From Hormiphora californensis (Eukaryota; Animalia; Ctenophora): a DNA stretch of 64,000 bases. Below, piece by piece: positions 2,516 through 59,340 of this stretch. Location: assembly GCA_020137815.1 (NCBI GenBank), contig CM035355.1, positions 4,402,001 to 4,466,000 of the forward strand. The letters are read 5' to 3'. The translations under genes and the position numbers were made by a program. Position 1 is the stretch's first letter. Every line of letters starts with the position of its first letter. The notes beneath the pieces were generated by a model, which saw only the letters and a program-made list of their open reading frames with translations, did not search any database and was not told the DNA's origin.

Positions 2516-3533
2516 ACGAGGACAGCGTTGAGGTTCGGTGCCCTGTTCACCACCGCATTTTACTGGGGGGGGGGGGGGGCGCCAGGGCGAAATAATCCTG
2601 CCACCATACAATAACTTTGGGTGGAAGGAATACGAGGACAGCGTTGAGGTTCAGTACCTTGTCTTAGAGGATGACGGTGTGGAGGCATACCAACACCTTA
2701 TAAAAAAGTGCACGTGGTGTACCACAGGGTGCAAAAAAAGATGTGGCTGCAAAGACGTTGGTTGCTGGTCTCTCTGCTCGTGTGAAGGTTCCTGTCAATA
2801 ACATCTTCTTGATATTTTGGACAACTATCCTCTTATTGACCGCATAACATTCCTTTCCACTGATGTTTTTGTGCTGGTGTTGGCCTGGTGTAGGAGGATG
2901 AAAGACAGTACAGTTCATGATTTGGGGGTGTACATGGATACCGGTAGCCGGTAGGAAGCGGTGGGACATGAGTGCCGTCCTGCTTAAAGAAGGAGAGAAA
3001 GTTGCAGCAGCACTCCCCTACGTCCATGCTGTTAGTGGGGCCGACTGGGTTCCTGCATTTTATGGACATGGTAAGCCCTCGAAGCCCTCGCCAGCAGCAG
3101 CCCTTGAGATTTGATGATATTTGGAAGAGTAACCACCGATCAGTCCCTGTCCCAACTTGGTGAGTTGTGTGCGGCCACGCTCAACCTGGTCAAGAGTGTG
3201 TACAAGGTAGATAGTTGCGCTACCCTTGCAGAAGCTCGGCTACTGCTACTGCGGAAAAAGGTCATCAAATCATTTCGAGATTTGCCACCCTCCCCTGATG
3301 CCCTACGGCAGCAATGTCTTCGTGCCCTGTTCACCGCCGCATTTTACTGGGGCGGTGCTGGCCAGAACGAAATAATCCTGCCACCATACAATGACTTTGG
3401 GTGGAAGGAATACGAGGACAGCGTTGAGGTTCAGTACCTTGCCTTAGAGGATGAAGGTGAGGAGGCATGTAACCAGCACCTTGTAAAAAAGTGCAAGTGG
3501 TGTACCAGAGGGCGCAAAAAAGACGTGAAGTAA
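2516..3533 (+). pseudogene. Scrambled remnants of an Academ(X)-type transposon protein: PIN/XPG nuclease plus Cys-rich (CXC/Cys8) C-terminus
   Basis: Motifs FLSTDVFVL (~2850), HAVSGADWVPAFYGHGK (HxxxGCDxxxxFxGxGK, ~3025-3075), LPPSPDALRQQCLRA..W..LPP..FGW (~3283-3405) and CTWCTTGCKKRCGCKDVGCWSLCSCEGSC (2709-2795). The C-terminal piece occurs three times (1752-1910, 2516-2800, 3320-3533) and there are frameshifts. Confidence 0.7.
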
Positions 3534-3739
3534 AAGTGTACCAAAATGTCTTTTTCTTCAGACTTCAATTTCCTATAACTCTTAATTAAATAAAACTAGT
3601 GTCTAAAATGAGGAACATGAGAAACTCTGCCCTACCAGCCCAACTGTATTTTTACACGCCACAGGTTTGTTTCAGAACTAATACTTCTCAGTTTGTAGCA
3701 GGCACTGTTTCTAACTAATAGCTATAAATCCATACCTAT

Positions 3740-3935
3740 CTCAGGAACTACAGTTAATGCGATAGATAACTTGGGGAAATATGGTCTCACCGTTAGTAAG
3801 ACTACAATGAGGCGGATATGGGCGGCAAATGCCAACAACGAGAAGTTGCTGATCTGGAGCATCAACCAGGCTAAGATAGATAGGGATCAGTTACTGAAGA
3901 TCCCGATTGTTTACACTGGACAAACGAACATCACA
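3740..3935 (+). pseudogene. Fused fragments: Academ-transposase-like N-terminal motif followed by Penelope-like post-RT motif
   Basis: SGTTVNAIDNLGKYGLTVSKTTMRR resembles the GxxxxxIxxLxxxGxxxSxxT motif of Academ transposases. QAKIDRDQLLKIPIVYT resembles the AxxxxRxxLL..IPxVxT motif of Penelope-like elements. Both matches are short. Confidence 0.35.
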
Positions 3936-4502
3936 CCCTATCTATCTCTGAACGGTATAAACTAATTAATGATAATATCCTAATTTCAAAGATGACAGCT
4001 GCCAATTATTCAAAATCTCTAATTCCAGACACTGTGTAGTGTGCCAATAAATGCTATACTTCTTTAGTTTTTTTTCGGGGGCAACAGTCACATGACACAA
4101 TATTATTCGCAGCTGCAAACGGTATCCGATTCAGCTTCAGTGATAATGACTTAAACTTCAACTGGTATTCCCCCGCATATATAGTTCAAGGAGATAACTT
4201 CAATCGTTATGTTAACGTTATATCATGTAAAGAATTAAAATATTTTTATGGTTGTATGAATGAAATATAATAAATTAGCCACCTATTGCGAGGCCTGGAC
4301 GAGAGAGATCGAGGAGTGAGGACTATATATAAAGACACGAAGACACGACATCTTCCCCTTCTTCTACTGTGTACGTGATCAGAGGGAGGCTATTAGAACG
4401 AGGGAAGGCAGAATTGCCGACAGAAAAGCCGTCCATGGCCACTTCTGGGGCAGGTTGTGTGTATTCCGAGATGCCGTTCACCGGGCAAGAACCAGTAGAT
4501 AT

Positions 4503-6150: not shown

Positions 6151-7130
6151 GTAGATATGTTGTATCGCACTAAAAAGCGTATATCACGTGCGCGTGGACA
6201 AGTGCTAAGGAGTACGATAGTGTGCAGGAGCTTTTTAAAATGAATAAAGACATCATCATGACAGAAGAGGATGAGAAGATGATGAGAGAGTCGAAGGACT
6301 GCTGGATTTGTGGCAAAGAGTTGAAGAGGGACCGTGTGAAAGACCACTGCCACATGACAGGAAAGTTCCTTGGTGCAGCCCACAACGCCTGCAACTTGAT
6401 GCGAGCAAAGAGGGAGACTGAAAAACTTCCAATCCTCTTTCACAACTTCAAGGTAAACCCTCTGTATCAAGATTTGTGTGCACTGTGGGATAATACCGTG
6501 TTTTAGGTTGAAGGAATGTCTTAAATATATAACTATTGACCGTTTTACACGACGAACACAATTGGTAGAAATTATACCCCTTCGTCTACTGTTATCATTA
6601 TTAGATAGGAGAATTTATCAGTGACATTAGTATACCTTATTTTACTTAAAGTTTTACAGATTTCGTACCGGTTGATAGAGTTAAAGTACCCTACAAATTG
6701 CAGTTGCAGTAGCTGACCAGCCCCTGTGCACCATTGCCAAAATAATACAGTTGGACATGCAACAAAGTTCTATTTATAACAAGAATTATTGCATTATGTA
6801 TTCATAATGCGGTGTTTCCCTGCCCTCCGTCGACAGGATCAGTATCACACTATCAGTATCACAATATCAAGGCTTGGTCACAATGTGAGATGCATGCGTC
6901 CTGTATGTATGCAGTTACACAGCTGTTTTACTCTACCCTCACCCCTTCAGCAACAGTGTTGTGAGCGCCGCGCACAGCTTTGAAAAATAAGCGTCCTGAC
7001 ATCATATTTCATCAAAACAGTTATTTGATTTTATGAAGGAGCAGTTACTATGCTGCTACCGTGACACACGCGATTTTGACCACGCTCGAGTTACTATTTC
7101 AAATCCGAGATTTCTAAACCCTTTATGATC

Positions 7131-7360: not shown

Positions 7361-7550
7361 GAGGTTACATTACACACATCACCAGCTGAATCATCGTGGT
7401 GTAATGGTTTGGTAATAATGGAATCCTTGGTAGAATGATCAGAAATATCATGGAGGAAGCGAAAGTGTCACTCGAAATAGCATGCTTATGGGCGACTTCG
7501 GCCAAGAACAGTCTTGCTAATCAAACTGGGTTTTCTCCTCACCAATTGTA
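7361..7550 (+). pseudogene. Ty1/copia (GalEa-like) integrase core fragment
   Basis: TSPAESSWCNGLV/NGILGRMIRNIMEEAKVSLEIACLWATSAKNSLANQTGFSPHQL matches TxAESPWSNG..ERHN..WAxxAKNxL.N..GFSPxQL. One frameshift or deletion at ERH. Confidence 0.75.
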
Positions 7551-7574
7551 TTGTTAATACTGACCCTGTTTTAG

Positions 7575-7686
7575 GTGAAATCAGCACTAACTAGAGTCCA
7601 AACGGAGATAGATTATACGTATGAACCTATAACAGACGCCGAGTGGAAGCTCATAGAGAAAGCCACACCACTCCTAGCCCCACTGG
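7575..7686 (+). pseudogene. hAT transposase (ZBED-like) fragment
   Basis: VKSALTRVQTE..ITDAEWKLIEKATPLLAPL matches the LxxxEWxxIExxxxLLxP motif. Preceded by a tttag acceptor. Confidence 0.55.
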
Positions 7687-8154
7687 TTCATACTATTATT
7701 TTTAATTTTATAGGTCGGTGCAACAGCACAACAATTTTCACGAGAAGTTTGTTTTGATATGAATATGATATTCACTTCTTCACAACAAGAAAGATGTGTT
7801 TAGCATCAGTCAACAAAAGCGACAATGCCCCCACTGTTCTGAAGATCATAGTCCGGTTGAATGCCGTGCAGACCACTGCAATATATAAGAATTAAGAGGA
7901 CACCTGCAAAGATCACAATTGAGTACTTACGACTGTCATGGTTACTGGCCACTGCCATAGAAGAGGATATGATAGAAAGGCCGCGATCGATCATCGACAA
8001 TAAAATAATTAGAGAGAATTGCACTGCTTTGATGAGACAGCTTAACTACATAATATAATATGTAGTTTAGCTGTCTATAGAGTATTTAATTTTGCCTAAA
8101 AACCCAGCACCCCCTGGGTGCATTGCCCAGTAATCTCTTCCGGTGATAAATCCC

Positions 8155-8638: not shown

Positions 8639-9630
8639 AAATTCAGTGATCTTTAGCTATGCTCATATCTGAAATATTCTGATCTCCTGCCAGGGACCAA
8701 TAGGGCAATGATTGACACACTGCAGTTTCTTGGGCTAACTCTTTGTTGTAAGACGATCTCTGAGACCGCCTTCTGAATCTGTTCTTCGGCAACATGTGAG
8801 AAGAAGTATATTTGTAGCCAGCCTATATGGAGATTGTCTCATAAGAGCGACATTTGGGGAGATATGACTCGAAAGGGGCTAAAGATGGACAATTGGGGAT
8901 GGAGTACCGGTACCGAGAGCTTCTTTAACTGGGGAACAGACTCCAATTTGATTTCAGAAAACTTAAAAGCGCTGTTTAAGTCTTGTTCGTCGACAGTGTG
9001 TATCAGTTGCCGGTGTGAACGCTGCTGGCTCCATTGCGCCTGCAAAGCAGAATGTGCAAAATCAGTTGTTTTATTCTAAAAGAAGCCACAGTTGTATGTG
9101 ACCGGTTTGTGTATTTTAATCTATTCGATGTTTTTACTTTTTAATACATTTTAATTACGCGTTAACTTATCAATTTTATATTATGCAGGGAGTAATTTAA
9201 TCTCTTGAACTTATCAATATCAAAGGAACGTCATTGAACTTGGCGATTGTCAGTTGTTTAATTATCGTATGGTACTGTGTACTATGTTTTATTGTTTCGA
9301 ATCTTAATTTGAGCTCCAGCTCAGCTGAAGGCAAATATGAAAAGTGTGGTTAAATATTTAAAGCATGTATGTAGATATCTCTCGTGCGATATTCGTAGGT
9401 CTAGCGCGCGGTGAAAGTTAGCATCGTCAGCATTTTAAAAGACGCAAACCCATGCAATCGCACATTACCCTTACAAGTGAGATGAAACCTAACGCAGCTC
9501 CCCGAACCCCCGGCAAATTCAGTGATCTCTAGATATGCTCATATCTGAAATATTCTGATCTCCTGCCAGGGACCAATAGGGCAATGATTGACACACTGCA
9601 GTTTCTTGGGCTAAATCTTTGTTGTAAGAC
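8639..9630. repeat. 116-bp direct repeats (8639-8754, 9515-9630) enclosing a 760-bp insert with a minus-strand exon-like segment
   Basis: Near-identical aaattcagtgatct...ttgttgtaagac copies. The insert has a minus-strand ctgctttgcAG acceptor at ~9041 followed by a 67-codon open stretch. Confidence 0.85.
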
Positions 9631-10050: not shown

Positions 10051-10629
10051 TGTCTGGGTGAATGCCAAAGGCAGGGTTAGCAGGGCTGATCGTTACGAGG
10101 TTAAACAGGGGAGCTGCCACCAGGCCATCATGGACAAGCTCCAATAACTATAAGCAGCAAGCGATTATCGATGAAAAAATCGAACGGGACCAGCGTGTCC
10201 ACCGTTATAAGACGACAAGAGGGTATTCTAATTTCTTTCAATGCCACCCCGGCCCCTCTGCCCCCACCATTCAATAACCATGCTGTCCATGGATTCGACA
10301 AAAGATAAGGCCGAAATTGTACCAGGGGTTTTGTACGTGCCAGTCACTTTGCAGGAATAATAAAGCTGCGTCTCCACTGTCATGAGACGACGAGAGGGTA
10401 TTCTAATATCTACCACACCAAAGCTATTCTTGCAGTGAAACTTCAGTTTTGTATGGAAGGCGCGGAGGCCGGGACATTGTAGCGTGATTTATATGCATCC
10501 ATTTTTAATGTATCGCTTTTCCCAGAAAGTTCATATGATTTGGTAACCGGTTACCGTGTCATCAGTAGTATGCCTTGCTTGTATAACATGCTATACGAGG
10601 GGATAATCTTGTGGCATGTATCCGGATTC

Positions 10630-10821
10630 TTGGAGTCTTCCCTTTCTTACCAGCAGGAGACATACATTTCTTGTGGGCAGCACTGGGACCATCGCTACCC
10701 GGATGTACCACAGCTTGCAAACCTTACCACAGTTCAGCAACTCAAGGGGTTCAAGGAAGGTAAAAATGTGAAGAATCACTTCGTCTGGTAGCTGATGAAG
10801 ACTCGGTTCTCCCTCAACCAT
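10630..10821 (-). pseudogene. F-box protein 5' fragment
   Basis: MVEGEPSLHQLPDEVILHIFTFLEPLELLNCGKVCKLW is a canonical F-box (LxxLPDEILxxIFxFL..L..VCKxW). A ttgcAG acceptor lies 17 nt upstream of the ATG (10821). No downstream domain. Flanked by an exact 18-bp direct repeat. Confidence 0.8.
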
Positions 10822-10950
10822 CCTTTCCGTCGTGAAATCTGCAAATCGAGGTTTGTTTCGTTGAGCTTGATTCTCGACACTGGAAGCACGTATGTAGCAG
10901 CTATACGAGGGGATAATACTATGGCATATCGAACATGACTTGGGGATCAT

Positions 10951-11016
10951 ACCGAAGCTGGCAGATGAGCAGTTAGGATTCAGGAAGGGATTATCGACAA
11001 GTCATGCAACCCTTAA
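10951..11016 (+). pseudogene. LINE reverse transcriptase fragment interrupted by a Kolobok MITE
   Basis: PKLADEQLGFRKGLSTSHATL = QxGFRxGxSTxxA motif of non-LTR RT. Confidence 0.7.
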
Positions 11017-12406
11017 GGGTACGCTAACCGAAAATTTTTTTCGAGTGCAGGGAAATCTCTCACCGTAGGGTTGTAGGCCATGCCAAGGAGACCTCAAATA
11101 TGCAATTTGAGCTCTCAAGTCGAATTCATATTTTTGCTACAGCTGCTTGAAAAATGAACTGAAAATAAGTTTTTGGCATCTCAAAAAAATTTCTTTAAAG
11201 ATAGGAGCATGAAAATTTAGGGATTTGAAGAGGACATGAATGTGAATAACCACAAAAAAATTTTTCGCAATCCGAGCTGATTTCCGGTCCTGAGATGGAT
11301 TTCTTTTTTTCCATTTTAACGCCCTATTTGGCAAACTTCCGAAAACATGTGAAAGCTGTAAATTGGTGAAAAGTTGCGTCTAACGATTATCTAAGTGGCC
11401 ATAAATTTTGGGCGTGTCCTTATTTGAGATAAGCTGTACAGAGTTTTTTTTGTGAAAGCCGTCATTTCAGAAATAAATAAATTCTCTGTATCTCAAAAAC
11501 GACTGATCGTAGAGACCTGAGACTATGCTTAAACGATTCAGAAGGTCCGATTTTGGGGGGGTCTTCTGAGAGACATTTTGCTCCTACTTCAACCGTTTAT
11601 GCTGTAATTGCGAAAAACAAATTCTATGAAAAGGGCAAAAGCTAAACTCCAATATTCTGTAATTAGGGAATTTTAGCTAACAAAGGACCGAAACTATGGA
11701 AAAATGTGTTACAAGCTAATTCCTTCACTATTTGGTCCATATGGGTCCCTATAATCACCAAAAAGAAAATCACAAAAAATCCACGATGGCGAAGATGGGT
11801 TTTTGTTTTTCGCAATTACAGCAAAAACGGTTGAAGTAGGAGCAAAATGTCTCTCAGAAGACCCCCCCAAAATCGGACCTTTTGAATCGTTTAAGCATAG
11901 TCTCAGGTCTCTACGATCAGTCGTTTTTGAGATACAGAGAATTTATTTATTTCTGAAATGACGGCTTTCACAAAAAAAACTCTGTACAGCTTATCTCAAA
12001 TAAGGACACGCCCAAAATTTATGGCCACTTAGATAATCGTTAGACGCAACTTTTCACCAATTTACAGCTTTCACATGTTTTCGGAAGTTTGCCAAATAGG
12101 GCGTTAAAATGGAAAAAAAGAAATCCATCTCAGGACCGGAAATCAGCTTGGATTGCGAAAAAAATTTTTGTGGTTATTCACCTTCATGTCCTCTTCAAAT
12201 CCCTATATTTTCATGCTCCTATCTTTAAAAAAAAAATTTTGAGATGCCAAAAACTTATTTTCAGTTCATTTTTCAAGCAGCTGTAGCAAAAATATGAATT
12301 CGACTTGAGAGCTCAAATTGCATATTTGAGGTCTCCTTGGCATGGCCTACAACCCTACGGTGAGAGATTTCCCTGCACTCGAAAAAATTTTTTGGTTAGC
12401 GTACCC
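11017..12406. mobile_element. Kolobok-type non-autonomous foldback element, family A copy 1
   Basis: TTAA TSD (11013-16 / 12407-10). Ends GGGTACGCTAACC...GGTTAGCGTACCC (RR..YY termini). ~605-bp TIRs around a ~180-bp spacer. Confidence 0.9.
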
Positions 12407-13607
12407 TTAAAACAGTACCCAAGTCAATGATAACTATCCGGTACTAAAAGTAGTATAATAATTACATTATGTTTTATATAAGTTATTATAAATAGTTCTA
12501 ATTGGAGATGGGACAATGGTCCCAGCAGCTCATTCAAGCACTTTCACAACAATCACCAAAACAATTGTGGGCGAAAAGAAAAACTGTCCCTGAGGCATAA
12601 TTGTTGTATTATTGTATGTCCCTTACCATAATGTAAGTACAGCTACAACATGTACTAACTGAATCATGGCCAAATTATGCTAATAACATTTTCGCACTAT
12701 GAAAAATCAGTGGAGGCCACCAGGCCATTATGGACGTCCTACATGCCTTGGTCAGAAACCAGCAAAAACTACAGGAGAAGATAGAGCGACTGGAAACGAG
12801 TGTTTCAACGATGATGCGCCGCCAAGAGGAACTTCTGGCGTGCTACACACTCCATCGGCAACGGTATAGCTCGTGGGTGTCAACAACGTTTTCTTTCGGT
12901 GCCACTTTTAGTTATATATGGATTATCTAGGGCCTGTCTTAAGCGTAAACGTGACACCGAGGAAGAAACATGGATACTGTTCAACGCGGATCTGACCGTA
13001 CTCCAACGTCCTGACTTAGATAGATAGAACACAGTTTAAAGTTTTACAATTTACATCGTTATCAGAATCTTTGTTTTATCAGGGTTTAATCACATCGATT
13101 AATATTAAACTAATTACTCGTTATGTCCCATCTAACTATGCCTAAATACACCTGCAATAATTGGCAGTGCGGACGGTGTAAACATGACTGGACGAAGTGT
13201 AGAGATAAGTATTGATATGAAATAAATCAGGAGAGTCCGTGCAATTGTAGGGGGAGACGTGACGCCGTGAATTTTGCCCATTACAGAGGAGTCTCGCACA
13301 TAGCTGAGAGCCCAACTGAAAATAATATGTAGTTTCATAATGGTTCAATGTTCATTAAACATAACTAATAAAAAGTTCTAATTAAAAATGTGGCAACGGT
13401 CGCTGCAGCAGCTCAGCGCGTCATAGTGTATAAGGGAAAAGAGAGGGCCAAACATTTACACTTCTTTCTCACAACAGGTGGAGGAAAATACCGATTCGAT
13501 AAAGCAGATACTTGCTCTGACAAAAAAGAATACGACGGTACTAAACAGGATTGAAACGCAGCAACACGAGATGGAAGGGGTTATTGAGGAACAAAAAAAG
13601 GAAATCG

Positions 13608-14985
13608 CTGATTTCACCATTTGCCTAGTCAGCGAACCATTCGCTCTCGAAAATAGTCGGATTTTACCCTCATACTACACTTTCCTACACCAAGGACGAT
13701 CAATGATGTAGAGCGGGGATTGTTATAGGAGAAAATATCTCCCCCACAAATATTCCATTCTCACCCAGTTTTCATTTTCGGATATATGCTTGCTATTCAA
13801 TACAATTAGCACCTGGCTATTGCCTCCTGTTATTGGGACAGTTCCAACAAATTCTAACCTTGGGGGGGCGGTGTCACGCTAATGATATCTCTCCCTGGTA
13901 CTAGGCGGTGATTTCAACTGCCAAAACTCTGCATGGGGTTCACCTTATTCCACCAATATAGGGACCAAGAACTCCTGGACCAATAAGACCAATAACAAGA
14001 CCTGGACGTGTTCCAAAAATCCTGAGGCTGCTCAATGAGGCCTATGCCATCCCTGAAGACCTGAAAGTATCACTAAAGGACCCGAGGAACCCGAGAAACC
14101 CGAGGAACCTGAGGAACTCTGGAAACGAGATGAACGTAAAGAGGGAACCAAGGAGCACACCGCCGTTTATAATGCACGGGTCGCTCTTGCAGGGAAGAGT
14201 GAGGGCATCTGTTTTATGGATTCCTATTATACAACTCATACAACACCTCAAAGATATGTGGACTTTATGTGGGAACACCCCCTTCCCTACATGATGGACT
14301 TCCTCCAGATCAATCTAAACAGAGGGGAAGTTCCTTCCCACTCACTGACGGATATCATCTCTGATTCCACCATCTGCCTAGTCAGCGAACCCTCAACCAT
14401 TCGTTCCTTCTCGAAAATAGTCGGATTTTACCCTCACACTTCATTTTCCCACACCAAGGACGATCAATGATTTAGAGCAGGGATTGTGGTAGGAGGAAAT
14501 TTCTCCCCCACAAATATTTCCATTCTTCATTATCGGATATACAATGTATATATAATATGCTTACTATTCAATACAAGCACCTGACTATTGCCTCCTGTTA
14601 CTGGGACGGTTCCGCTGAACTACTGACAACAATCCGTGTAACCTTGGGGGCGATGTCACGCTAATGGTATTTCAACTGCCACCACTCTGCATGGGGTTCA
14701 CCTTATTCCACCAAGAACTCCTGGACCAATAAGACCAATAACAAGACCTGGACGTGTTCCAAAAATCCTGAGGCTGCTCAATGAGGCCTATGTCATTCTC
14801 GAGGACCTGAAAGTATCACTAAAGGACCCGAGGAACCTGAGGAACCCGAGAGACCCGAGGAACCTGAGGAACCCGAGGAACCTGAGGAACCCGAGGAACC
14901 TGAGGAATCGGAGGAACCTGAGGAATCGGAGGAACCGGAGGAACCCTGGAAACGAGAGGAACGTAAAGAGGGAACCAAGGAGCTA
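13608..14985 (+). pseudogene. Two tandem copies (13608-14155, 14361-14985) of a LINE (I/R1-like) AP-endonuclease fragment
   Basis: FLQINLNR..TICLVSEP (from 14291), RAGI, L(A/T)IASCYWD and LVLGGDFNCQNSAWGS (~13897-13945) are APE motifs. Frameshifted. Copy 2 keeps the N-terminus but has lost GGD. Confidence 0.75.
14824..14947. repeat. 9-bp minisatellite (gaggaaccy)n
   Basis: About 13 units here versus about 4 in the paralogous copy at 14078-14120. Confidence 0.9.
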
Positions 14986-15991
14986 CTGATTTTAATTTAT
15001 ATATTTTACTCTAATTTATCTTCCCCTAAACATTCCATTGAATATACAATATCATGGGCGGACGACTTAGTTTCCCTGGTACAGTCAAGAGATTATGATG
15101 ACTGTCCAGTACTAAAAGTAACTTATAATAATTAAATTTATTTCATATAAGTTATAAACAGTTCTAAAAGAAGATGGGACAATGGTCGCTACACCAGCAC
15201 ACCACCGTTTATGATGTACGGACAACCCTGGGTGCGTGTGCGCTAGAACTTGAGAGATTTGATATTGATTATTGAGAGTTGAAAATCTGCAGATGAAAAT
15301 CTTGTGATGATTTCAAATTGAGTATTCTGTTAAACAAATACACATCGTTTCACGTTTTGACTATCGTTATCAATGTATCATATAGAATCTCTCATTTCCC
15401 TATAGTGACCAAGTCCACGATAAAACAATAACTTATGTAATCCTGTACCGTTTCTCCTATAACAGTGCAGGGACGGCCCACAGTATGGACCCTTCTAGTT
15501 TGTGTGTGACACGGTTTGAAAATAAATCCGGCCGCATGTTTCCATGGGCGTGCAGACTGGAAGCCACCCTAGAATACTCGGCAGTGCCTTCCTTTGCGCC
15601 AACTTATAATGTAAATTAAAAGAAAAAGCACACCAAGTAAAAGCCGGGCTTAGACCTACAGTTTACCAGGTGGACACACGTCATACAATAAACCATAAAA
15701 CCTAGCTATTACTAGTATTAGGGCCACACACAAACTGCATTTTATAGCCACGGAGATCCGTTTAGTTTCACTATTGATATCTCCACACCGGAGACTAGAA
15801 ACTAACACCCCTCTCCCTGTCATAGCAAGATCCTAACATGATATTTGATGCTCGGGAAGATGTCACTATGGAGTGGACTTGGGGCCTAGAGGAGGAGGAG
15901 GAGGAACTACTGCAACTCCAAGAATCAGCCTCCACGTCCACCCCCTGGTCCCTCAGCCCGCATGTATATATGTAATTGTATGTTGTATGTA

Positions 15992-16968: not shown

Positions 16969-17040
16969 TACATGTGCGATATGTGCGGGATGGTGTTTGT
17001 ACGACACTTAGAAAGACATTCAGGCACTCATGAAAAGGTT
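16969..17040 (+). pseudogene. Degenerate C2H2 zinc finger remnant
   Basis: YMCDMCGMVFVRHLERHSGTH (shortened loop), downstream of a tttttctcag acceptor at 16921. Confidence 0.5.
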
Positions 17041-42224: not shown

Positions 42225-42304
42225 GTAATGAAAAATATGCCTTTGTACGCAGTTTTTTATCATGTGCTAGTCCTTTGTCTGTTTATTATGGCAATTTCTA
42301 GATA

Positions 42305-46212: not shown

Positions 46213-46385
46213 AGAACCGCTCACACTACCGTGGCCCTCATCAAGACTCTAGACAAGCTGAGAGAAAATTCCTGGTTTTCATCACCTGGTGTCCGGGACA
46301 CCACGGGATAGCAGGAAACGTGCGGACCAGTTGGCAAAAGCTGCTGCAGATGCTCCCCCTCCCACAGAACATTTCATCCCTGTAG
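46213..46385 (+). pseudogene. Non-LTR retrotransposon RNase H C-terminal fragment
   Basis: VFITWCPGHHGIAGN/ADQLAKAAA = WxPGHxGIxGNExADxLAK, with a frameshift. Confidence 0.8.
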
Positions 46386-47479
46386 GCAAGATATAAAGTT
46401 GCAGCCAAAACGTGGTCCTTAACACAGCTACCTCCAAGTCTTACTCAGTTGAAGGAAAAGTTGACATCACATCGACCAATCATCTGATTAGCTATGTTAC
46501 TCTCTCATCCAAGGCAGATCTCCAATCGCCAACTTTCTGATAAGAGCTGATATTATGATAAAAGAAGATATATAAATGTAATGCTAAAACACCGGGACAT
46601 TCCGGAGACCAATAACGAATAATAGCATCGGGTTTCTTGAGTCAAAACTAGATTTTTGTGAAGAAACACCGTATAGTGAGGTCCAAAAAGTTAAAAACTC
46701 AAAGTTTTGAGTCAGTGACTAATCGGCCCTAGTATAGTGATTCGGCTATTCTGCCATTTAGGGACTTTAATACCACGGGCAAGAAGTTATGTGCAGACTG
46801 TGTGATACACGTATTCTAAATATTATGGGATGGTAGTACCCGAACAACAGCAGCTTATCTATTGCAAGGCGTGCGGCTACTTCGGGCATATCACCGCGAT
46901 TTGTGGCAGATATATGGACTGAACAAGCGGGGCGCAACAGCACTAGACGGCGGGCAAAGGCGGCCAGGCGGGGGAACAGCGTTCAGAACTGCTCCATCCG
47001 TTGCAATACCCCTACGACAAGACGGTACCCCACCGTGACCACTACAAGGATGTCCCCTCAGGATGCCCGCAGGAAAGAGTCCCCACGGCCCACCCAAGTG
47101 AGAATAATTGATAAATCAAATAATGAGCTGATATAAGATAATAACAATGCTAAAACGCCGGGACTACTACTTTTAAACAAAGTAGACGGAATGTCCAATT
47201 GGGGGGGGGGGGCTGTGTCCAGTCAGCAGTAATAGAAACCTATATGAAGAAATAGAACCCCGGGCAAAGATCCAGAAACCACACGGGAAACCCGCCAGGA
47301 CAGACATCACGGGATTCCATGGATGTGAGTATGAAGAAGGAGAATGCATATACATATGATATATCCAATTCTCAAGCTTACATACACTCCCTCCTTGAGA
47401 GGGAGCGGTAAAAAAACAATGCTATAAAATATAATATAATCACTGATAAAAACTGGTACACCAGGACTACCCCATTTAA

Positions 47480-48851
47480 GGGTACGCTAACGCAGGGAAA
47501 TCTCTCACCGTAGGGTTGTAGGCCATGCCAAGGAGACCTCAAATATGCAATTTGAGCTCTCAAGTCGAATTCATATTTTTGCTACAGCTGTTTAAAAAAT
47601 GTCATGTAAATTCGTTTTTGGCATCTCAAAAAAATTTTTTTAAAGATAGGAGCATGAAAATTAGGGGATTTGAAGAGGACATGAAGGTGAATAACCACAA
47701 AAATTTTTTTTGCAATCCGAGCTGATTTCCGGTCCTGAGATGGATTTCTTTTTTTCCACTTTAACGCCCTATTTGGCAAAGTTCCGAAAACATGTGAAAG
47801 CTGTAAATTGGTGAAAAGTTGCGTCTAACGATTATCTAAGTGGCCATAAATTTTGGGCGTGTCCTTATTTGAGACAAGCTATACAGAGTTTTTTTTGTGA
47901 AAGCCGTCATTTCAGAAATAAATAAATTCCCTGTATCTCAAAAACGGCTGATCGTAGAGACCTGAGACTATGCTTAAGCGATTCAGAAGGTCCGATTTTG
48001 GGGGGGTCTTCTGAGAGACATTTTGCTCCTACTTCAACCGTTTTTGCTGTAATTGCGAAAAACAAATTCTATGAAAAGGGCAAAAGCTAAACTCCAATAT
48101 CCTGTAATTAGGGAATTTTGGCTAAGAAAGGACCGAAACTATGGAAAAATGTGTAACAAGCTAATTCCTTCACTATTTGGTCCATATGGGTCCCTATAAT
48201 CACCAAAAACAAAATCACAAAAAATCCACGATGGCGAAGATGGGTTTTTGTTTTTCGCAATTACAGCAAAAACGGTTGAAGTAGGAGCAAAATGTCTCTC
48301 AGAAGACCCCCCCAAAATCGGACCTTCTGAATCGTTTAAGCATAGTCTCAGGTCTCTACGATCAGCCGTTTTTGAGATACAGGGAATTTATTTATTTCTG
48401 AAATGACGGCTTTCACAAAAAAAACTCTGTACAGCTTGTCTCAAATAAGGACACGCCCAAAACTTATGTCCACTTAGATAATCGTTAGACGCAACTTTTC
48501 ACCAATTTACAGCTTTCACATGTTTTCGGAACTTTGCCAAATAGGGCGTTAAAGTGGAAAAAAAGAAATCCATCTCAGGACCGGAAATCAGCTCGGATTG
48601 CAAAAAAAATTTTTGTGGTTATTCACCTTCATGTCCTCTTCAAATCCCCTAATTTTCATGCTCCTATCTTTAAAAAAATTTTTTTGAGATGCCAAAAACG
48701 AATTTACATGACATTTTTTAAACAGCTGTAGCAAAAATATGAATTCGACTTGAGAGCTCAAATTGCATATTTGAGGTCTCCTTGGCATGGCCTACAACCC
48801 TACGGTGAGAGATTTCCCTGCACTCGAAAAAAAATTTTGGTTAGCGTACCC
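47480..48851. mobile_element. Kolobok-type foldback element, family A copy 2
   Basis: TTAA TSD (47476-79 / 48852-55). Near-identical to 11017-12406 apart from a ~17-bp deletion in the left TIR. Confidence 0.92.
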
Positions 48852-49369
48852 TTAAAAGTAGACTGAATGTCTCATGGAGCCCTGCAGTGTAATTGGAGAA
48901 GGTGACTGGTAACTGACACCTGAACCATCATCCTGACAAGACAAATCGATTCTGCACCCTCCCCACAACGGCCTAAGAGGAGAGACTACAGCAACATTTG
49001 GCAAACGGATGGACTGAACTAAGCGAGGACCCCTCCAACTCATTCCAGCTACAAGCCAACACTCTCCTAAAGACTTGCCTAAAGGAAGCAGATATTTCAC
49101 CGCCCCAATCGTCTACCCACTCGCGAAGGACCACAAACCTGACTTCCCGAACACAAAGGTGCGTGTGGTTCAGCCACAAAGCTATAAAATATAATATTAT
49201 AATTGTAATAAAAACTGATACACCGGAACTACCCCATTTAAATGTAGACTGAATGTCTCATGGAGCCCTGCAGTGTAATTGGATGCCTACTACTTCATAG
49301 GCCTATATTGATGCTACCGACAATCAAAGAACCCCACCGCAGGAAACTTCTTGTATTGTTCATACAAGG

Positions 49370-49530
49370 GACACTTCCTAGGGAGGAAGCAGTTGTAGCT
49401 GCAAGTGCCGTTTCTTTTTCCACCAGCCTTGGAAATTGTTGTAGCTGCAACAATTCGTGCAAAATCAGTTGCGGCTGCAGAAAAAGCAAGAGCAACCATC
49501 TATGCAGTGGCCCTGGCACCTGTGACCTCC
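49370..49530 (+). pseudogene. Cys-rich (CXC-like) C-terminal remnant of a transposon protein (second copy 45780-45900)
   Basis: LPREEAVVAAS..CCSCNNSCKISCGCRKSK..C..C. Confidence 0.4.
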
Positions 49531-50401
49531 GGCCAAAGAATGTTGCAATAGTATAGTGATTCGGCTATTCTGCCATTTAGGGACTTTACTACCACGGGCA
49601 AGAAGAGATGTGCAGACTGTGTGATACACGTATTCTAAATATTATGGGATGATTGTACCGGAACAACAACAGTACAGCTTATCTATTGCAAGGCGTGCGG
49701 CTACTTCGGCCATAGCAGGCAATGCAATCGAGAAAGAAGCGATAAAATCCTACATTATACAATTATACATCTTTAGCTTTCTTTTGTTTAGCAACAGCAA
49801 ACTCTTGTAATACCCCTAAAAGAGCCCCACCGCAGGAAACTTCCTAGGGAGGAAGCGATAAAATAACAAATCTATAACATAATTGATAAATTAAATAAAA
49901 GGCTGATAGAAGATAACAACATTGCTAATACACCGGGACTACTACTTTTAAACAAAGTAGACTGTGAATGTCTCATGGAACCCTGCAGTGTAGAAGGCAA
50001 CTGACACCTGAACCCAGCTCATAGGACATAGGAAACGGACTTCATCATAGTAAATGAGGTACTACTAGAACAGATAGTCATAACACTAATAAACAATTTG
50101 TAATTTAAGATTCAGAGAAGCAGTGGTCGTATTCACAGAAGAATGGAGTTAGTTCTGAAACCGCTGATAACAGTAGATGTACAAAAAGTAACACGTGAAG
50201 CTTGGCTTAAAGTCATTTTTCGTAAAAAACACCTGGTTTTATGTAAAGGCGAGGAAATCGCTCCTGGGCCGTAAAATAAGTGATAAAATAACAAATAACA
50301 TTTAATTGATAAAGGCTGATCAATATAGGAACGATGAAGACATAAAAAAGGCTGATACATAAAAGATTATAACAACACTGCTTACTGGTGTGTTTGAAGA
50401 A

Positions 50402-51305
50402 TAGTTAGGGGTAATAACACCGAATATCGCCTTGACTGGGAAAAAATTTGTGTCAAGCTAATTTCTTCACTAACGTGTCCCAATAGGTCCCCTCTAGCCC
50501 TCCTGAGTTTTTCATAACTCGGGATGGGGTGCAACATGTTCATTTCCGGGTGGGCGTGGTACCTGTATTTTCAGCCTGAGGCCAAAACCATAAGTACCCT
50601 TAAAATAGGAGTAGACATAAAATCGAGGGCACTAAAGTGATCAGCGTCCTCGCATTAGTGGGGGTAGGTGCCGGAATTAATTCTCTATCTCATCTGGTTA
50701 ATTAGATAATTGGATAATTAGGTTTGCACATAACCGTTTTTTGGCTATATGGCTATAGCCACTTAGGAATGGTTTAGAGACTTTTCACTGGCGCCATTTT
50801 GTAGGCAATAGCCAAGTTATGGGGGTCGAAGTCGGACTTTTAAGCTCTATCTCCAACCGTTGGAGATAGAGCTTAAAAGTCCGACATCGACCCCCCATAA
50901 CTTGGCTATTGCCTACAAAATGGCGCCAGTGAAAAGTCTCTAAACCATTCCTAAGTGGCTATAGCCATATAGCCAAAAAACGGTTATGCACAAACCTAAT
51001 TATCCAATTATCTAATTAACCAGATGAGATAGAGAATTAATTCCGGCACCTACCCCCACTAATGCGAGGACGCTGATCACTTTAGTGCCCTCGATTTTAT
51101 GTCTACTCCTATTTTAAGGGTACTTATGGTTTTGGCCTCAGGCTGAAAATACAGGTACCACGCCCACCCGGAAATGAACATGTTGCACCCCATCCCGAGT
51201 TTGGAAAAACTCAGGAGAGCTAGAGGGGACCTATTGGGACACGTTAGTGAAGAAATTAGCTTGACACAAATTTTTTCCCAGTCACACGACTACCGCCCCT
51301 AACTA
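50402..51305. mobile_element. Academ-type foldback MITE copy 1 (904 bp)
   Basis: Termini TAGTTAGGGG...CCCCTAACTA. 3-bp TSD GAA (50399-401 / 51306-08); the empty site ..ggaGAAggcaactgac occurs in scaffold copies at 53888 and 58378. Near-perfect internal palindrome 50432-51284. Confidence 0.85.
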
Positions 51306-52039
51306 GAAGGCAACTGACATCTGAACCCAGATGTCAAGGAGACTAACTGAACAGCCTATCAGAAACAGTGTTATAAAAACTGTCCGATCTGCATCTCGAG
51401 TGTCACATGACTTTGAGAATGACCAATGGGAGTGAGAGTGATATTTACAGGCCTGGTGTTGAATTAACGATTGCTTTGTATAAAATTGAACTTTTATCCT
51501 TCCGTGGCCAGTTCCATCCACGACTCCTGAACAACTTGTCTGAACCAGTTGGATCACTGTGTGGTTGCACTTAGGTCTCTTTTGGATCACTGAGTGTTTG
51601 TGCCTGGGTCTCTTTTGGATCACTGAGTGTTTTAACAAGACCCCCGTGCAGATGTCAAGGAGACTAGATGCCGACACCGAGTTCAGGGACTAATTGAACA
51701 TTGGCTGCCTGCTTTGTTCGGAGGACGACACCCCTGAGCCGGCGGTTACATTCAACTGGAGCAGTCTCAGAAACCATCCGCTCCAATACCCGTTTGACCG
51801 GACAGTTCCTCACCTAGATTTGTATAAAGACGTGCCATCGGGTTGCCCGCAGGAGAGGGCCCCGACCCAAAGAAGAACACTGGAGGATGGAATTCGGTCT
51901 CGATTACAGCACCTCCTCTCAGTACGCGCTCAAAGAGGCAGAGGAAGAGAAGCATGTGCAAAGGATGACCATGATCTATCCAATTCTCAAGCTTACATAC
52001 ACTCTCCCTTGAGAGGGAGCGGTAAAATAACAATGCTAT

Positions 52040-53314
<1,275 letters not shown>

Positions 53315-54465
53315 ATAATATAATATAATCGTGATAAAACTGGTGTAATTGGAGGTCTATACAGATGCCACCCACAATTGCAAAGAGCCCCACCGCAGGA
53401 AACTTCTTGTATTGTTCATACAAGGGTCGGTGTCACAGCACAAGAAGCTTTATAGGCAGGGATCAGCGGAAAAATAACAAAACCCTGCCCTATATTATAA
53501 TTGATAAATAAAATAAAAGGCTGATAGAAGATAATAACAATGCTAAAACACCGGGACTACTACTTTTAAACAAAGTAGACTGAATGTCTCATGGAGCCGG
53601 ATTCGGAGTTTCTTTAGGATTAGCCCTAGCTAAACCCCTAATAATGAGCAGATCAATAACAGGAATGACAACTTGCTAAATTGTTTCTAGCCACAAACGA
53701 ACCCAAATTCTTGGCTGCTATAACAGGATCACCGGCTATTGATTCGGCTATTGGTAAATTAAATAAAAGGCTGATAGAAGATAATAACAATGCTAAAACA
53801 CTGGGACAACTACTTTTAAACTAAGTAGACTGAATGTATCATGGAGCCCTGATATAGTTAGACACAACGCTGCTAACTGATGTAATCGGAGAAGGCAACT
53901 GACACCTGAACCCAGCTCAGTGTAAGCGGTAAATCATAATCTCATTATCTTGGGTAATTGAATTCCACTAACTAACCAATCAGCGATCTCTGTGAGTTGT
54001 CACGTGACACACACGTATATAGGTGTGGAGGGGAGGGGCTGAAGAGCGCTGATAATAATAAAAAGGTGTGTGACACCGTGTGTCTCGGTGCTAAACATGG
54101 AAATGATACCTGAGGATGGAGAAGTGGGTTGAACATGAGATACCAGTTATAATTTGGCACGTATATCTATGTGTGTGGAGGGGAGGGGCTGGAGAGACAC
54201 ACCTTATAATCATGGCTTGATCAGAGCCCAGATAATAAGGTGTGTCTTGGCGCATTCTTTCGGATAGCGAGGAGGAGAGAGTTCTGAACAGGATGGGGGC
54301 GGGATATGGGAAACCAAACTTCCCAACCATGCCCACAGAGATCAGTTATGACATCTCATATTAGAGCCTTTCTAAACGAGACAAAATCTCGTATGAGGCA
54401 GTTATAACTGCCTCCTATAGTTGGTAGATACTGGTCTAGAAAGATATTTCGACTCTAACTGCTGG

Positions 54466-55467
54466 TAGTTAGGGGTAATAACACCGAATATCGCCTTGAC
54501 TGGGAAAAAATTTGTGTCAAGCTAATTTCTTCACTAACGTGTCCCAATAGGTCCCCTCTAGCCCTCCTGAGTTTTTCCAAACTCGGGATGGGGTGCAACA
54601 TGTTCATTTCCGGGTGGGCGTGGTACCTGTATTTTCAGCCTGAGGCCAAAACCATAAGTACCCTTAAAATAGGAGTAGACATAAAATCGAGGGCACTAAA
54701 GTTATCAGCGTCCTCGCATTAGTGGGGGTAGGTGCTGGAATTAATTCTCTATCTCATCTGGTTAATTAGATAATTGGATAATTAGGTTTGCGCATAAACG
54801 TTTTTTGGCTATATGGCTATAGCCACTTAGGAATGGTTTAGAGACTTTTCACTGGTGCCATTTTGTAGGCAATAGCCAAGTTATGGGGGGTCGACGTCGG
54901 ACTTTTAAGCTCTATCTCCAACCGTTTAGTCGTTATGTGGCTTGAAAGTCGCTCAAAATTAGCAAAAAACGGTAAAAAGCCCGATTTTGAGCGACTTTCA
55001 AGCCACATAACGGCTAAACGGTTGGAGATAGAGCTTAAAAGTCCGACATCGACCCCCCATAACTTGGCTATTGCCTACAAAATGGCGCCAGTGAAAAGTC
55101 TCAAAACCATTTCTAAGTGGCTATAGCCATATAGCCAAAAAACGGTTATGCGCAAACCTAATTATCCAATTATCTAATTAACCAGATGAGATAGAGAATT
55201 AATTCCGGCACCTACCCCCACTAATTCGAGGACGCTGATCACTTTAGTGCCCTCGATTTTATGTCTACTCCTATTTTAAGGGTACTTATGGTTTTGGCCT
55301 CAGGCTGAAAATACAGGTACCACGCCCACCCGGAAATGAACATGTTGCACCGCATCCCGAGTTTGGAAAAACTCAGGAGGGCTAGAGGGGACCTATTGGG
55401 ACACGTTAGTGAAGAAATTAGCTTGACACAAATTTTTTCCCAGTCATACGACTACCGCCCCTAACTA
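54466..55467. mobile_element. Academ-type foldback MITE copy 2 (1002 bp)
   Basis: Same TAG...CTA termini. 3-bp TSD TGG (54463-65 / 55468-70). Keeps ~97 bp of the centre that copy 1 lacks. Confidence 0.87.
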
Positions 55468-55968
55468 TGGTTAGAGTTTGAACCATTACCGGCTACTAGT
55501 GGTGCGAGTGATGGTGCTCACGACTGGCCTCTCTGGGATTTAATGACAGAGGTAGACAGCTCAAGTGTCTGTGAGCTGTCACGTGACACACACACATATG
55601 TGTGGAGGGGAGAGCCCTGAATCCTGATAATAAGGTGTGTCTCGGTGCTAAACATGGAAATGATGGCTGAGGATGAAGAAGTGGGTTGAACATGAGATAC
55701 TAGCCAGTTATAATTTGAGTAACCCATCCTTATTTTCTAGATATCTGTTTAATAAGCGGCGTTCTTGAAAACTTGCCGAAAAGGAAGCCAAGCCAACTAC
55801 ATCGACTCGTTAAGGGAAAGACAAAGGATGAAATAATCCGATTCCCAAGACAAACAAAGGCAAACAAAGAGGATTAAAGTACATACACACCCTTTGGAGT
55901 GAGCGGCAAAATAACAAAGCTATAACATAATTGATAAAAGCTGACAATAGATAATAACAATGCTTTAA

Positions 55969-55997
55969 GGGTACGCTAACCAAAACATTTTTTCGAG
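55969..55997. mobile_element. Orphan Kolobok family A-like left end
   Basis: TTAA + gggtacgctaaccaaaacattttttcgag, then diverges. Confidence 0.6.
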
Positions 55998-56037
55998 CCT
56001 AATTGGAAATTCTCCACACAGCATTATGACTTCAAAC

Positions 56038-56436
56038 ATGGTGTCAAGTAGCGAGGAGGAGAGGCAGACAACGGCGGTGGGGGAGGCAAGGGAGCCCACG
56101 TGCGGGAGGAAGGGATGTAACAGGCACGTCACCCTGCAGGATGGGAGGTTATGGTTGGTCAGGGTGTGCATTACTTGCTTTGAGGACCTGGAAGGGAACG
56201 AGGCGGACATCAGGATGGGGAGAGCAGTATTAGATATAGAACTGGAAGGATACAGCCAGGCAGAGTCCTTTAGAAGGATCTTGACAAGGGCACGGGGCGG
56301 GCTCGACAGCATTATGGGGAGGGCTCAAATGGCGGCGTATTACCTTCATAGGGCGGAACGAGGTGCAAACACATTAATAGAGGAACTAGGATTGGCACAG
56401 GAGGTACTTAGAGAACTTAGGGGACGGGCGGTATAG
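56038..56436 (+). CDS. Unknown Cys4 (Cx4C-x15-16-Cx2C) plus helical protein; diverged homolog at ~58705-59010
   Basis: CGRKGCNRHVTLQDGRLWLVRVCITCFEDLEG.. aligns without gaps to CGRRDCNRRVGPEDGRLWKVRLCIWCFEDLEG.. over ~100 aa. Substitutions look conservative and neither copy has a stop. Confidence 0.55.
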   Translation: MVSSSEEERQTTAVGEAREPTCGRKGCNRHVTLQDGRLWLVRVCITCFEDLEGNEADIRMGRAVLDIELEGYSQAESFRRILTRARGGLDSIMGRAQMAAYYLHRAERGANTLIEELGLAQEVLRELRGRAV

Positions 56437-56623
56437 GGGAGGTCAATCAAAATAAGCACTTTTATAATTGTACATTCAATTCAGAGTAATTTATTGAAAA
56501 TGCTGTGTCACTTACACCACCCGCCTAGATTATATGTGTCTATCTCTATCTCTCCTTTTCGTGCTCTCTTTTCTCGTTATCCTTCACACTCTTTCTTTCA
56601 CTCCCACTTTCTCTTTCCCTTAA

Positions 56624-57092
56624 AGTGAGAGTGGACCGAATCAGAATTGGACAAGTTTGTTATAGGTAGTAGAGAATAGCTCTCTGAGCATTTTGCCTTT
56701 TTGCCGCTCAAAATCGACCCACCCATCACTGAGATATTTTTGTTATGTTGGGAGAATTCCTGCTGGATCAGTATTTATCAAACAAGATAGAAACAATCCT
56801 TGTGTTTTACTAACACATTCTTTAAATTTTTAATATGCTGGCTTGCATTGCCCGGCTTCTGTGCATGGACATGTTAACCTCACTGCTTATATTCAGAATG
56901 TGTTAGTAAAACACTACGATTGTTTCTATTCTGTTTTATACATACTGATTAAACAGGAGTTCTCCCAACATAACAAAAATATCTCAGTGATGGGTGGGTC
57001 GATTTTGAGTGGCAAAAACGCAAAATGCTCAGAAAGCTAATCTCTACTACCTACAACAAACTTGTCCAATTCTGATTCGGTCCACTCTCACT
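56624..57092. mobile_element. Kolobok-type MITE, family B (469 bp)
   Basis: TTAA TSD (56620-23 / 57093-96). Ends AGTGAGAGTGGACCGAATCAG...CTGATTCGGTCCACTCTCACT. ~200-bp imperfect TIRs. Confidence 0.88.
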
Positions 57093-57096
57093 TTAA

Positions 57097-57248
57097 CCTC
57101 TTTTTCTCACTCTTCTCTCGCCCTCCCTGTTTCTCCCCTTTTTCACCCTCTCTTTATCCCTCTCTCTCTCCCTCTCTCTCTTTTATCTCTTCCTCATTCT
57201 CTCACTCTAATCTATACCTTTCCCGCGCTCCCTTTTCCCACAATTTGC

Positions 57249-57311
<63 letters not shown>

Positions 57312-57365
57312 TCTCTCTTTCCCTTTCTCGCTTTGCTCTCTCGTTTCTCTCTCTTTACTTTCTCG
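57097..57365. repeat. CT-rich low complexity with (CT)n core 57249-57306
   Basis: Direct reading. Continues the CT-rich tract 56540-56620 that the Kolobok MITE splits. Confidence 0.9.
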
Positions 57366-57782
57366 ATATGACCCCTTCCCATTTATACAAATTACTTACT
57401 ATAACTTAACCATCCCTCTGTATATTTTCAAAGTATCTTCGCAATGAACCAATCAAGAATGAACAGGTGGCAGGCGGCGGCAGTGGAAGGAAAGGGGGCG
57501 GAGGCGGCGGTAGGAGGAGCGGCGGCGGAGGCAAAGGAGAACATTAGAAGATGGTGTTCGGTCACGACTACAGCACCTCCTCTCAGTACGCGCTCAAAGA
57601 GGCAGAGGAAGAGAAGCATGTGCAAAGGAGAACATTAGAAGACGGAGTACGGTCCCGCCTACAGCACCTCCAAGGAGGTAGAGGTAGAGGCAGCCAGATT
57701 TATTATCAAGAGAAGCATGTGCAAAGGATGACCATGATCTATCCAATTCCCAAGCTTACATACACTCTCCCTGTAAAATATA

Positions 57783-58062
57783 CAGGGTGGTTCAGAAACA
57801 TGGAGCCACTTGGAGATAAAAGTTGGAAAAATACAATCCTCTCTCTATTGTACGGATCAAAATTTCAACGTGTTACCCTGTCAGTTGACAGGCTGATAAT
57901 CTTTATGAAAGAGTGACTCTCTGTCGATCCCAATCCTCAGGGGACACCTTTTCTAGCCAATAGACCGTGAAAATACGTTTTCAATTACACTGTACATTGG
58001 AGAGCGAACTGTATTGACACATTAGTTATCTCAAAGTGGCTCCATGTTTCTGAACCACCCTG
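57783..58062. mobile_element. Tc1/mariner-type MITE (280 bp), copy 2
   Basis: TA TSD; same TIR as 15992-16271. Confidence 0.93.
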
Positions 58063-59111
58063 TAATATAATCGTGATAAAACTGGTGTAATTGGAGGTCT
58101 ATACAGATGCCACCCACAATCAAAGAGCCCCACCGCAGGAAACTTCTTGTATTGTTCATACAAGGGTCGGTGTAACAGCAGAAGAAGCTCTATAGGCAGG
58201 GATCAGCGGTAAAATAACAAAACCCTGCCCTATATTATAATTTATAAATAAAATAAAAGGCTGATAGAAGATAATAACAATGCTAAAACACCGGGACTAC
58301 TACTTTTAAACAAAGTAGACTGAATGTCTCATGGAGCCCTGATATAATAAGACACAACACTGCTAACTGATGTAATCGGAGAAGGCAACTGACACCTGAA
58401 CCCAGCTCAGTGTAAGCGGTAAATCATAATCTCATTATCTTGGGTAATTGAAATCCACTAGCTAACCAATCAGCGATCCCTGTGAGTTGTCACGTGACAT
58501 ACACGTATATCTATGTGTGTGGAGGGGAGGGGCTGAAGATCCCTGATAATAATAAAAAGGTGTGTCTCGGTACTAAATATTTAATGGAAATGATACCTGG
58601 GGATGAAGAAGTGGGTTGAACATGAGATACTAGCCAGTTCTAATTTGGGTAACCGGTAAGCCCATCCTTATTTTCTAGATATTTGTTTACTGAGTGGAAT
58701 CAGGATCTGTGGGAGGAGGGACTGCAATAGGCGAGTCGGCCCGGAGGATGGTCGGCTATGGAAGGTTCGGTTATGCATTTGGTGCTTCGAGGACTTAGAA
58801 GGATACGAAATGGACATTAGAATGGTGAGGGCGGTAGCAGACGTGGAGTTGGAGGGTGAGAACGGGTGCGATGAATACCGTCGCATATTATCGAGAGCGC
58901 ATGGTGGACACGATAGCATCACGGCTAGGGCACATTTAGCTTCTAGCTACCTGTATAGGGCGGAATTGGGAGCAAATAAATTAATGGAGGAGTTGGAGTT
59001 GGGACAACCGGAAACCCGGCAAATGCTATTATTAGCCATCAGGTTTTCTTATACGAGAACTAGTGTGTTGTGGGCGGGTAGGTTATTAGCACGGGAAAGG
59101 GCGGGGTACGC

Positions 59112-59340
59112 GCCTACGTGGATGCTTGGGAATCGTACAGGGTGGCGGCGAGGATCAGTCCCGGGGACGCCCAAATGGTGTTTCCCACCTATTTGGACGA
59201 GGTGTCGGCGATGAAGGTCCGTGAGGACGAGGAGGCCAAGGTGGCCACCACATGGGAGGCCTACAAGGAAAGAGTTGTAGAGCTGCTAGCTCCGAGGGAG
59301 CTTAAGGTAGTAGCAATCTCTAAGTTTCGGAACTTAAAAC
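59112..59340 (+). pseudogene. LTR-retrotransposon (Ty3/gypsy-like) Gag capsid fragment
   Basis: YVDAWESYRVAARI..FPTYLD..TWEAYKERVVELLAP..AISKFRNLK resembles the retrotransposon gag WxxxKxxxxxxxxP...AxxxFxxL pattern. Confidence 0.5.

Follow-up and report, generated by a model that had tools for sequence, protein, structure and literature searches.

What kind of locus gathers short remnants of many unrelated transposable elements (TEs) on a single DNA strand? The question is raised by a stretch of 64,000 nucleotides from the ctenophore Hormiphora californensis (GenBank assembly GCA_020137815.1, contig CM035355.1, positions 4,402,001 to 4,466,000 of the forward strand), which we analysed over its whole length and call the window. 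Nearly every recognisable TE coding remnant in this 64-kb window lies on the plus strand, and the same polarity is shown by remnants of DNA transposons, long interspersed nuclear elements (LINEs), long terminal repeat (LTR) elements, and Penelope-like and Polinton-like elements. The polarised field fills the window (1–64000), has both of its ends outside it, and is interrupted by a satellite of ~9.5 kb. TE remnants are dense throughout, no intact host gene was found in the window, and the longest open reading frame (ORF) outside the satellite is below 250 amino acids (aa). The explanation that we favour, at roughly even chances, is that the window may be a flamenco-type small-RNA source locus, in which the minus strand would be transcribed.

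A preliminary description of this DNA had counted about 15 TE fragments, all on the plus strand, and had cautioned that the tally needed an unbiased search of both strands. For a strand-hidden reading, the six frames of 12601–30500 and 39901–64000 were cut into 702 chunks, shuffled, and read with the strand masked. Plus-strand chunks made up 20 of the 22 motif-bearing picks and 50 of the 57 weaker ones; both minus-strand picks of high rank were reverse readings of CXC loci already counted, and were retained within the 20/22. Pfam was searched with 1,085 ORFs from both strands, namely 639 of at least 42 aa outside the satellite and 446 of 28–41 aa outside masked repeats (235 of the latter on the minus and 211 on the plus strand). 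All five mobile-element matches fell on the plus strand (Pif1_2B, Endonuclease_7, Exo_endo_phos_2 and two duplicate zf-CCHC_6), with Pif1_2B and Endonuclease_7 alone above the Pfam cut-off. The two tests uphold the polarity, and TE fragments on the minus strand are not comparable in number. A further scan, with motifs picked after the data had been seen, gave six minus-strand matches, all short and without supporting context.

How many independent pieces agree is a separate matter. Self-comparison, with palindromes, satellite and simple repeats masked, yielded 118 direct versus 2 inverted matches; the local duplicates have a median length of 69 nt and a median distance of 2.9 kb, and cover 11.8 of the 45.0 unmasked kb. 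The preliminary description had treated its fragments as independent, with a coin-flip probability of ~6e-5. Because the pieces are partly duplicated, and because the colinear LINE pieces may derive from a single copy, this value moves to between 1e-4 and 3e-3. With duplicates merged, motif-bearing TE remnants number ~18 on the plus strand versus one doubtful case on the minus strand, and under a conservative merge, which joins neighbours that possibly belong to one element, 12 of 13 are on the plus strand (p 0.003). The presence of many TE classes, almost all on the plus strand, stands, and the word "all" does not: an F-box piece, a stretch at 21963–22600 and a doubtful hAT-dimerisation-like ORF lie on the minus strand. 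The bias also exceeds the extent first assigned to it (2516–59340), as it begins earlier, with a PIF1 piece at 647, and runs beyond 59340, so as to reach both window ends.

The arrangement of related pieces points the same way. Relatives that are diverged at the protein level, and are not DNA duplicates, share their orientation (an Academ pair, a knuckle pair, the gypsy ORF copies and the 30317/61060 pair), two of these co-oriented pairs span the satellite, and relatives in opposite orientation are confined to palindromes and terminal repeats. The left and right flanks of the satellite are polarised separately, and of the 47 1-kb bins scored, 39 have a positive AT skew. In favour of the polarity, too, a composition-based coding score of at least 10 bits was reached by 46 segments on the plus versus 6 on the minus strand, and in eight block shuffles that preserved local skew by 12–22 and 0–4, respectively.

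The pieces left of the satellite, all on the plus strand unless stated otherwise, begin with 33 aa of a PIF1 helicase 2B domain (647–745; Pfam PF21530, 2.1e-6, above the cut-off), of Helitron-type or host Pif1 origin, which the preliminary description had missed. A transposase C-terminus that we take to be Academ-like, with an XPG-like helix motif and a Cys-rich end, is found in three partial tandem copies at 1777–3461; its sole homologue is an 817-aa EukProt protein (P0001; 86% identity), of which it covers aa 553–803, with tblastn values down to 4e-81. A second, diverged Academ-like C-terminus (8748–9076) has 45% protein identity to the first, in the same orientation. Further pieces are an N-terminal portion of pPolB (6174–6503; motif, and Endonuclease_7 at 2.3e-6, above the cut-off), presumably of Polinton type; a copia-type integrase C-terminus (7405–7554; motif at 7501–7524, no Pfam match); and a hAT-like piece with a zinc knuckle after it (7575–7864; motifs at 7632–7655 and 7826–7864). 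The LINE material comprises an ORF1-like coiled coil and an apurinic (APE) endonuclease piece (13427–14897; Exo_endo_phos_2, 0.0026), tandemly duplicated with a period of ~750 nt such that 13604–14154 pairs with 14357–14897, and, colinear with the APE piece, a post-reverse transcriptase (RT) piece (17857–18171) that was a strand-hidden pick and for which a homologue search gave no match. Two RecQ-like DExH pieces were recognised by motif (18830–18955, for which a PDB search was empty; 28090–28464, motif at 28354–28371, for which it returned nothing relevant); with the PIF1, hAT-like and two Academ-like families they are counted among the DNA-transposon remnants. There follow a C2H2 zinc-finger piece from a TE or the host (23262–23786; Pfam 8e-5); a gag-type CCHC knuckle piece (29132–29416; motif at 29345–29386), 35% alike to a knuckle at 46818 in the same orientation; and a partly duplicated coding piece (29998–30361) with a co-oriented relative past the satellite at 61060–61104, for which an atlas search (30128–30397 queried) gave nothing above 0.79.

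Right of the satellite, a Penelope-like RT N-terminal piece (45381–45635), identified as a strand-hidden pick and by motif, has a copy at 48977–49180 that lacks one stretch, and the gap is edged by a 7-nt direct repeat. It is accompanied by a CXC cysteine cluster recognised by motif (45840–45878; copy at 49440–49478), a frameshifted LINE-type RNase H piece (46207–46390; two strand-hidden picks and a motif), and a CCHC knuckle (46806–46919; zf-CCHC_6, 0.033) whose copy at 49639–49773 scores 0.003 with zf-CCHC_6. Farther along, 55969–59375 holds a gypsy-like upstream ORF, with diverged copies at 40751, 55969 and 58660, and a piece at 59082–59375 that is presumably gag. Reading the sequence directly, we also found a coding piece (60664–61125) with an apparent GT-AG intron at ~60951–61037. 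A strand-hidden pick at 60782 labelled "hAT" was removed from the family count, as a better frame overlaps it. The copia integrase, hAT, DExH, Penelope RT, CXC, RNase H, LINE post-RT and gypsy gag labels are our assumptions, made from motifs recognised in translation; PDB searches on three motif-labelled pieces returned nothing informative.

Two pieces of note lie on the minus strand. A 62-aa piece from a host F-box gene family (10705–10890; Pfam 1.9e-11), cut within its coding sequence and flanked by ~30-nt imperfect direct repeats, has four homologues (P0002–P0005), three of which share with P0001 an "sb" identifier style that we take to be that of Pleurobrachia bachei gene models, so that the homologues would point to a pleurobrachiid ctenophore; no other minus-strand match to the four was found in the window. 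Contigs of two public runs, X1 (a seawater run) and X2, presumably of RNA, were also compared with the window; they carry no strand, size or level, and are counted neither for nor against transcription. One X1 contig departs from the window behind 10891, and its departing letters read like the coding sequence of the F-box homologues. No other piece is clearly from a host gene, and this one faces the other way from the TE pieces, an arrangement that is no more than suggestive of a sorting into antisense TE pieces and sense host pieces. The second minus-strand feature is a coding-like stretch rich in K, P and A (21963–22600; medium strand-hidden picks), 93% alike to an X1 contig; 22199–22600 has no relative among 1.84 billion representative sequences.

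The field has evidently been reworked. It was duplicated, trimmed and re-invaded by miniature inverted-repeat transposable elements (MITEs), a TTAA-flanked one of which was inserted into one of two duplicates; the small size of the pieces, which had been held to be unlike that of ordinary nested insertions, therefore owes at least something to post-insertion deletion and local duplication. Some plus-strand pieces appear to retain introns, and words resembling splice acceptors are in excess on that strand only; because of this, capture at the DNA level is likely.

We propose that TEs or pieces of them would insert as DNA, and that copies antisense to a long minus-strand transcript would be kept, either for the useful PIWI-interacting RNAs (piRNAs) that they supply or because they leave the transcript undisturbed, while sense copies would be purged. 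Deletion would trim the retained pieces, tandem duplication would maintain the length of the locus, and the remnants would give rise to guides antisense to many transposon classes; host-gene pieces would be tolerated mainly in sense, where the host gene would escape silencing. Under this proposal, one bias would be common to unrelated elements left and right of the satellite because a long minus-strand transcript is under selection. The machinery has precedents: two PIWI proteins are reported in Pleurobrachia, 402 of 457 piRNA clusters in Nematostella are one-stranded (PMC5731801), and Mnemiopsis has piRNA-like RNAs with a ~25-nt class, 1,235 unique clusters, and a ping-pong signal that was seen in one library of the two (PMC6211395). 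Antisense TE insertions are favoured in one-strand clusters (PMC5844692, PMC10643416). A stronger version, in which the locus would be a dedicated ctenophore memory for all TE classes, with short pieces sorted by polarity (TEs antisense, host genes sense) and compacted by cycles of duplication and deletion, strikes us as rather unlikely; if true, it would place a one-strand "trap" design, purer and more fragmented than flamenco, at the animal root.

Several points weigh against a small-RNA source locus. The blinding was partial, as ORFs of at least 90 aa had been seen with their strand beforehand, the strand-hidden picks are mutually dependent, and most TE labels were assigned by motif recognition. 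Purine skew alone yields a plus-strand excess in the coding score, which explains part of the signal, not all of it. The word AATAAA is not depleted on the minus strand (36 observed versus 23 expected, z +3.0). The stretch at 21963–22600 is the main unexplained minus-strand piece; the sorting of host and TE pieces has a single F-box piece as its basis, and may be weakened further if the C2H2 piece and several intron-bearing plus-strand pieces are host genes. Known clusters also differ: the bias of flam-like Drosophila loci is described as confined to gypsy (PMC10643416), whereas in the window it extends to DNA transposons, LINEs, copia, Penelope-like and Polinton-like elements, and in Trichoplusia ni the bias is milder, at 57% of insertions and 80% of TE bases (PMC5844692). 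The bias of the window, which spans all classes, thus exceeds that of these models. Finally, a long intron predicts the same polarity.

This last is the main rival: a very long intron, or another long minus-strand transcript, that has no small-RNA role and from which sense insertions were purged, which we consider an appreciable, if minor, possibility. Sense insertions would introduce splice acceptors and poly(A) signals, and where transcripts are trans-spliced, the spliced leader could be drawn to a stray acceptor; acceptor-like words are indeed enriched on the plus strand only, not on the minus strand (z 2.1–2.4). Yet no run of host exons was found on the minus strand within the window, where the F-box piece is cut in coding sequence and its homologues find no further minus-strand match, and the bias of insertions in introns is usually partial. 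An antisense bias of TEs in long introns, in the same direction relative to the transcript, is known (PMC3517506, PMC1794541), and it needs a host gene, none of which was found in the window. Hormiphora has 1,654 genes that host nested genes, often TE-flanked, it is common for genes to be nested in long introns, and trans-splicing is widespread (PMC8527503), but an intron of more than 64 kb that includes a satellite of 9.5 kb would be an extreme case for a genome of ~110–160 Mb (sizes from PMC8527503).

Four other explanations fit less well. The polarity might be inherited from a few nested ancestors that were co-oriented by chance, then multiplied and shredded, as the excess of direct duplicates and the colinear LINE pieces would suggest; we think this unlikely, given that at least 12 of 13 unrelated families agree after merging (p 0.003), on both sides of the satellite. 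Similarly improbable is that the field is cargo of a Helitron-type rolling-circle or other capturing element, with fragments taken in its own orientation. The plus-strand PIF1 piece at 647, the lack of own ends on the pieces and the apparent retention of introns in some are compatible with such an origin, and stepwise capture and loss of fragments by Helitrons is documented (PMC3288121), while in maize 95% of such elements fall short of 10 kb (cited in PMC3288121). Most of the supposed cargo in the window consists of other TEs and not of host genes, and no Rep domain is among the Pfam matches, although no search was aimed at Helitron termini (TC...CTRR with a 3' hairpin). A chain built by RT template jumping, as in telomeric Penelope-like Terminons, would produce polarity mechanically and could draw on the Penelope-like RT piece and the G-rich, strand-biased satellite in mid-window; it is very unlikely. 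Terminons, as we assume, have intact co-oriented RT ORFs and hammerhead-bearing terminal repeats, whereas the window contains neither an intact RT ORF nor a poly(A) tract above 10 nt, introns appear to be retained, and an Rfam scan found no hammerhead (permuted forms may escape it), no tRNA and no family at gathering score, only sub-threshold, hairpin-driven microRNA (miRNA) matches. An assembly artefact or reader bias is scarcely credible: the last 4 kb of the satellite, from ~35.9 kb, are indel-rich, like a poorly polished long-read consensus, and a misjoin is possible there, but each flank is polarised alone, the strand-hidden and database tests concur, and public contigs match single-copy-looking stretches at 99–100%.

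Taken as a putative one-strand piRNA source, for which it is a credible candidate, the window would be notable mainly for its lineage and for a bias that spans all TE classes. It resembles flamenco and flam-like Drosophila clusters in being a long, gene-poor array with TE remnants on one strand (PMC10643416), and such clusters can be recognised from sequence alone, as here (PMC11400887, PMC10643416). It is not a strict flam-like locus, its bias not being confined to gypsy. With the uni-strand clusters of T. ni it shares an antisense bias over mixed TEs and retained TE splice sites (PMC5844692). Transcription and piRNAs have been shown for the flam-like clusters (PMC10643416), and the T. ni clusters were defined by small RNA (PMC5844692), whereas the window, with pieces of a few hundred bases, is known and defined by its letters only. 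The portions of the Nematostella and Mnemiopsis cluster studies considered here describe no large polarised TE-remnant locus for a ctenophore (PMC5731801, PMC6211395), and open-access main texts gave no description of a polarised TE archive in a ctenophore, although supplements may list such loci. Ctenophores are reported to be without miRNAs (PMC6211395). If our preferred explanation is true, antisense TE archives would be older than the divergence of ctenophores from cnidarians and bilaterians, and could cover every TE class, not gypsy alone; an intron or a mere graveyard would make the window ordinary. The ctenophore lineage branches off at or close to the base of the animals, and the window offers a concrete locus for a cheap small-RNA test.

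Among the remaining features, the satellite (30478–40050) is G-rich, with a 33-bp repeat (33/28-bp unit) and strong G and A skew on the plus strand; GC content is ~40% outside it. A palindromic MITE with TTAA at both ends (11013–12411), presumably Kolobok-like, has a 96% copy at 47476–48856, a short relative at 26503–26823 and a start at 55966; the arms of this family are up to 609 nt long and 98–99% identical, and the family is young and a possible source of hairpin-derived small interfering RNAs. Another near-perfect palindromic element of ~900–1000 nt occurs twice (50402–51305 and 54466–55467) and has many short matches to X2 contigs.

The preliminary description had stated that none of its fragments has the termini of a parent element; two small elements right of the satellite do keep termini: one at 41281–42222, with 49-nt inverted termini and a zinc-finger-like ORF (41575–41943), both on the plus strand, and a small terminal inverted repeat (TIR) element with intact ends at 42303–42978 on the minus strand, whose doubtful hAT-dimerisation-like ORF (42458–42574, minus strand) has no Pfam match, and at whose exact ends, 42303 and 42978, X1 contigs diverge from the window. 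Further small TIR elements lie at 15987–16273 and 57778–58064, 52964–53317, 56620–57096 and 20126–20412, one of them with an AG microsatellite.

From 44842 to 58341 the plus strand is a patchwork of local duplications, in which an AT-rich unit of ~110 nt is present in six almost complete copies and in further variants; its ends are ragged. A repeat-spacer (CRISPR-like) array was rejected on account of these ragged ends and of neighbours that are often duplicates of one another, not unique spacers. Over 15–16 nt this unit resembles the spliced leader of ctenophores (PMC8527503), but the match does not include the 3' end of the leader and traces to a single duplicated sequence, so that we attribute it to chance. 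Three tandem copies of ~500 nt, up to 99% identical, occupy 24430–25706 with coding-like frames on both strands. Three open plus-strand ORFs of 134–153 aa (20599–21057, 27573–27974 and 59706–60125) look protein-like, and none of them matches Pfam; a short stretch near 41190 resembles one of the three, and an atlas search with 20599–21057 gave weak, unnamed or EF-hand-like leads only. A minus-strand Collagen match at 14796–14996 was discarded as a 9-bp tandem repeat under the cut-off. Relative to dinucleotide shuffles of the masked 45 kb, ATG depletion is stronger on the minus (z -5.3) than on the plus strand (z -2.8).

No match came from metagenome scans in which P0001 or a MITE word served as the query, or from a viral scan with the pPolB piece. 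In the two public runs, 10500–30400 drew 9 and 2 contig records, three of which are matches of 142–273 nt at 99–100%, and 40100–53050 drew 8 and 61, mostly repeats. At 15408–15813, two overlapping X1 contigs match the window at 99–100%.

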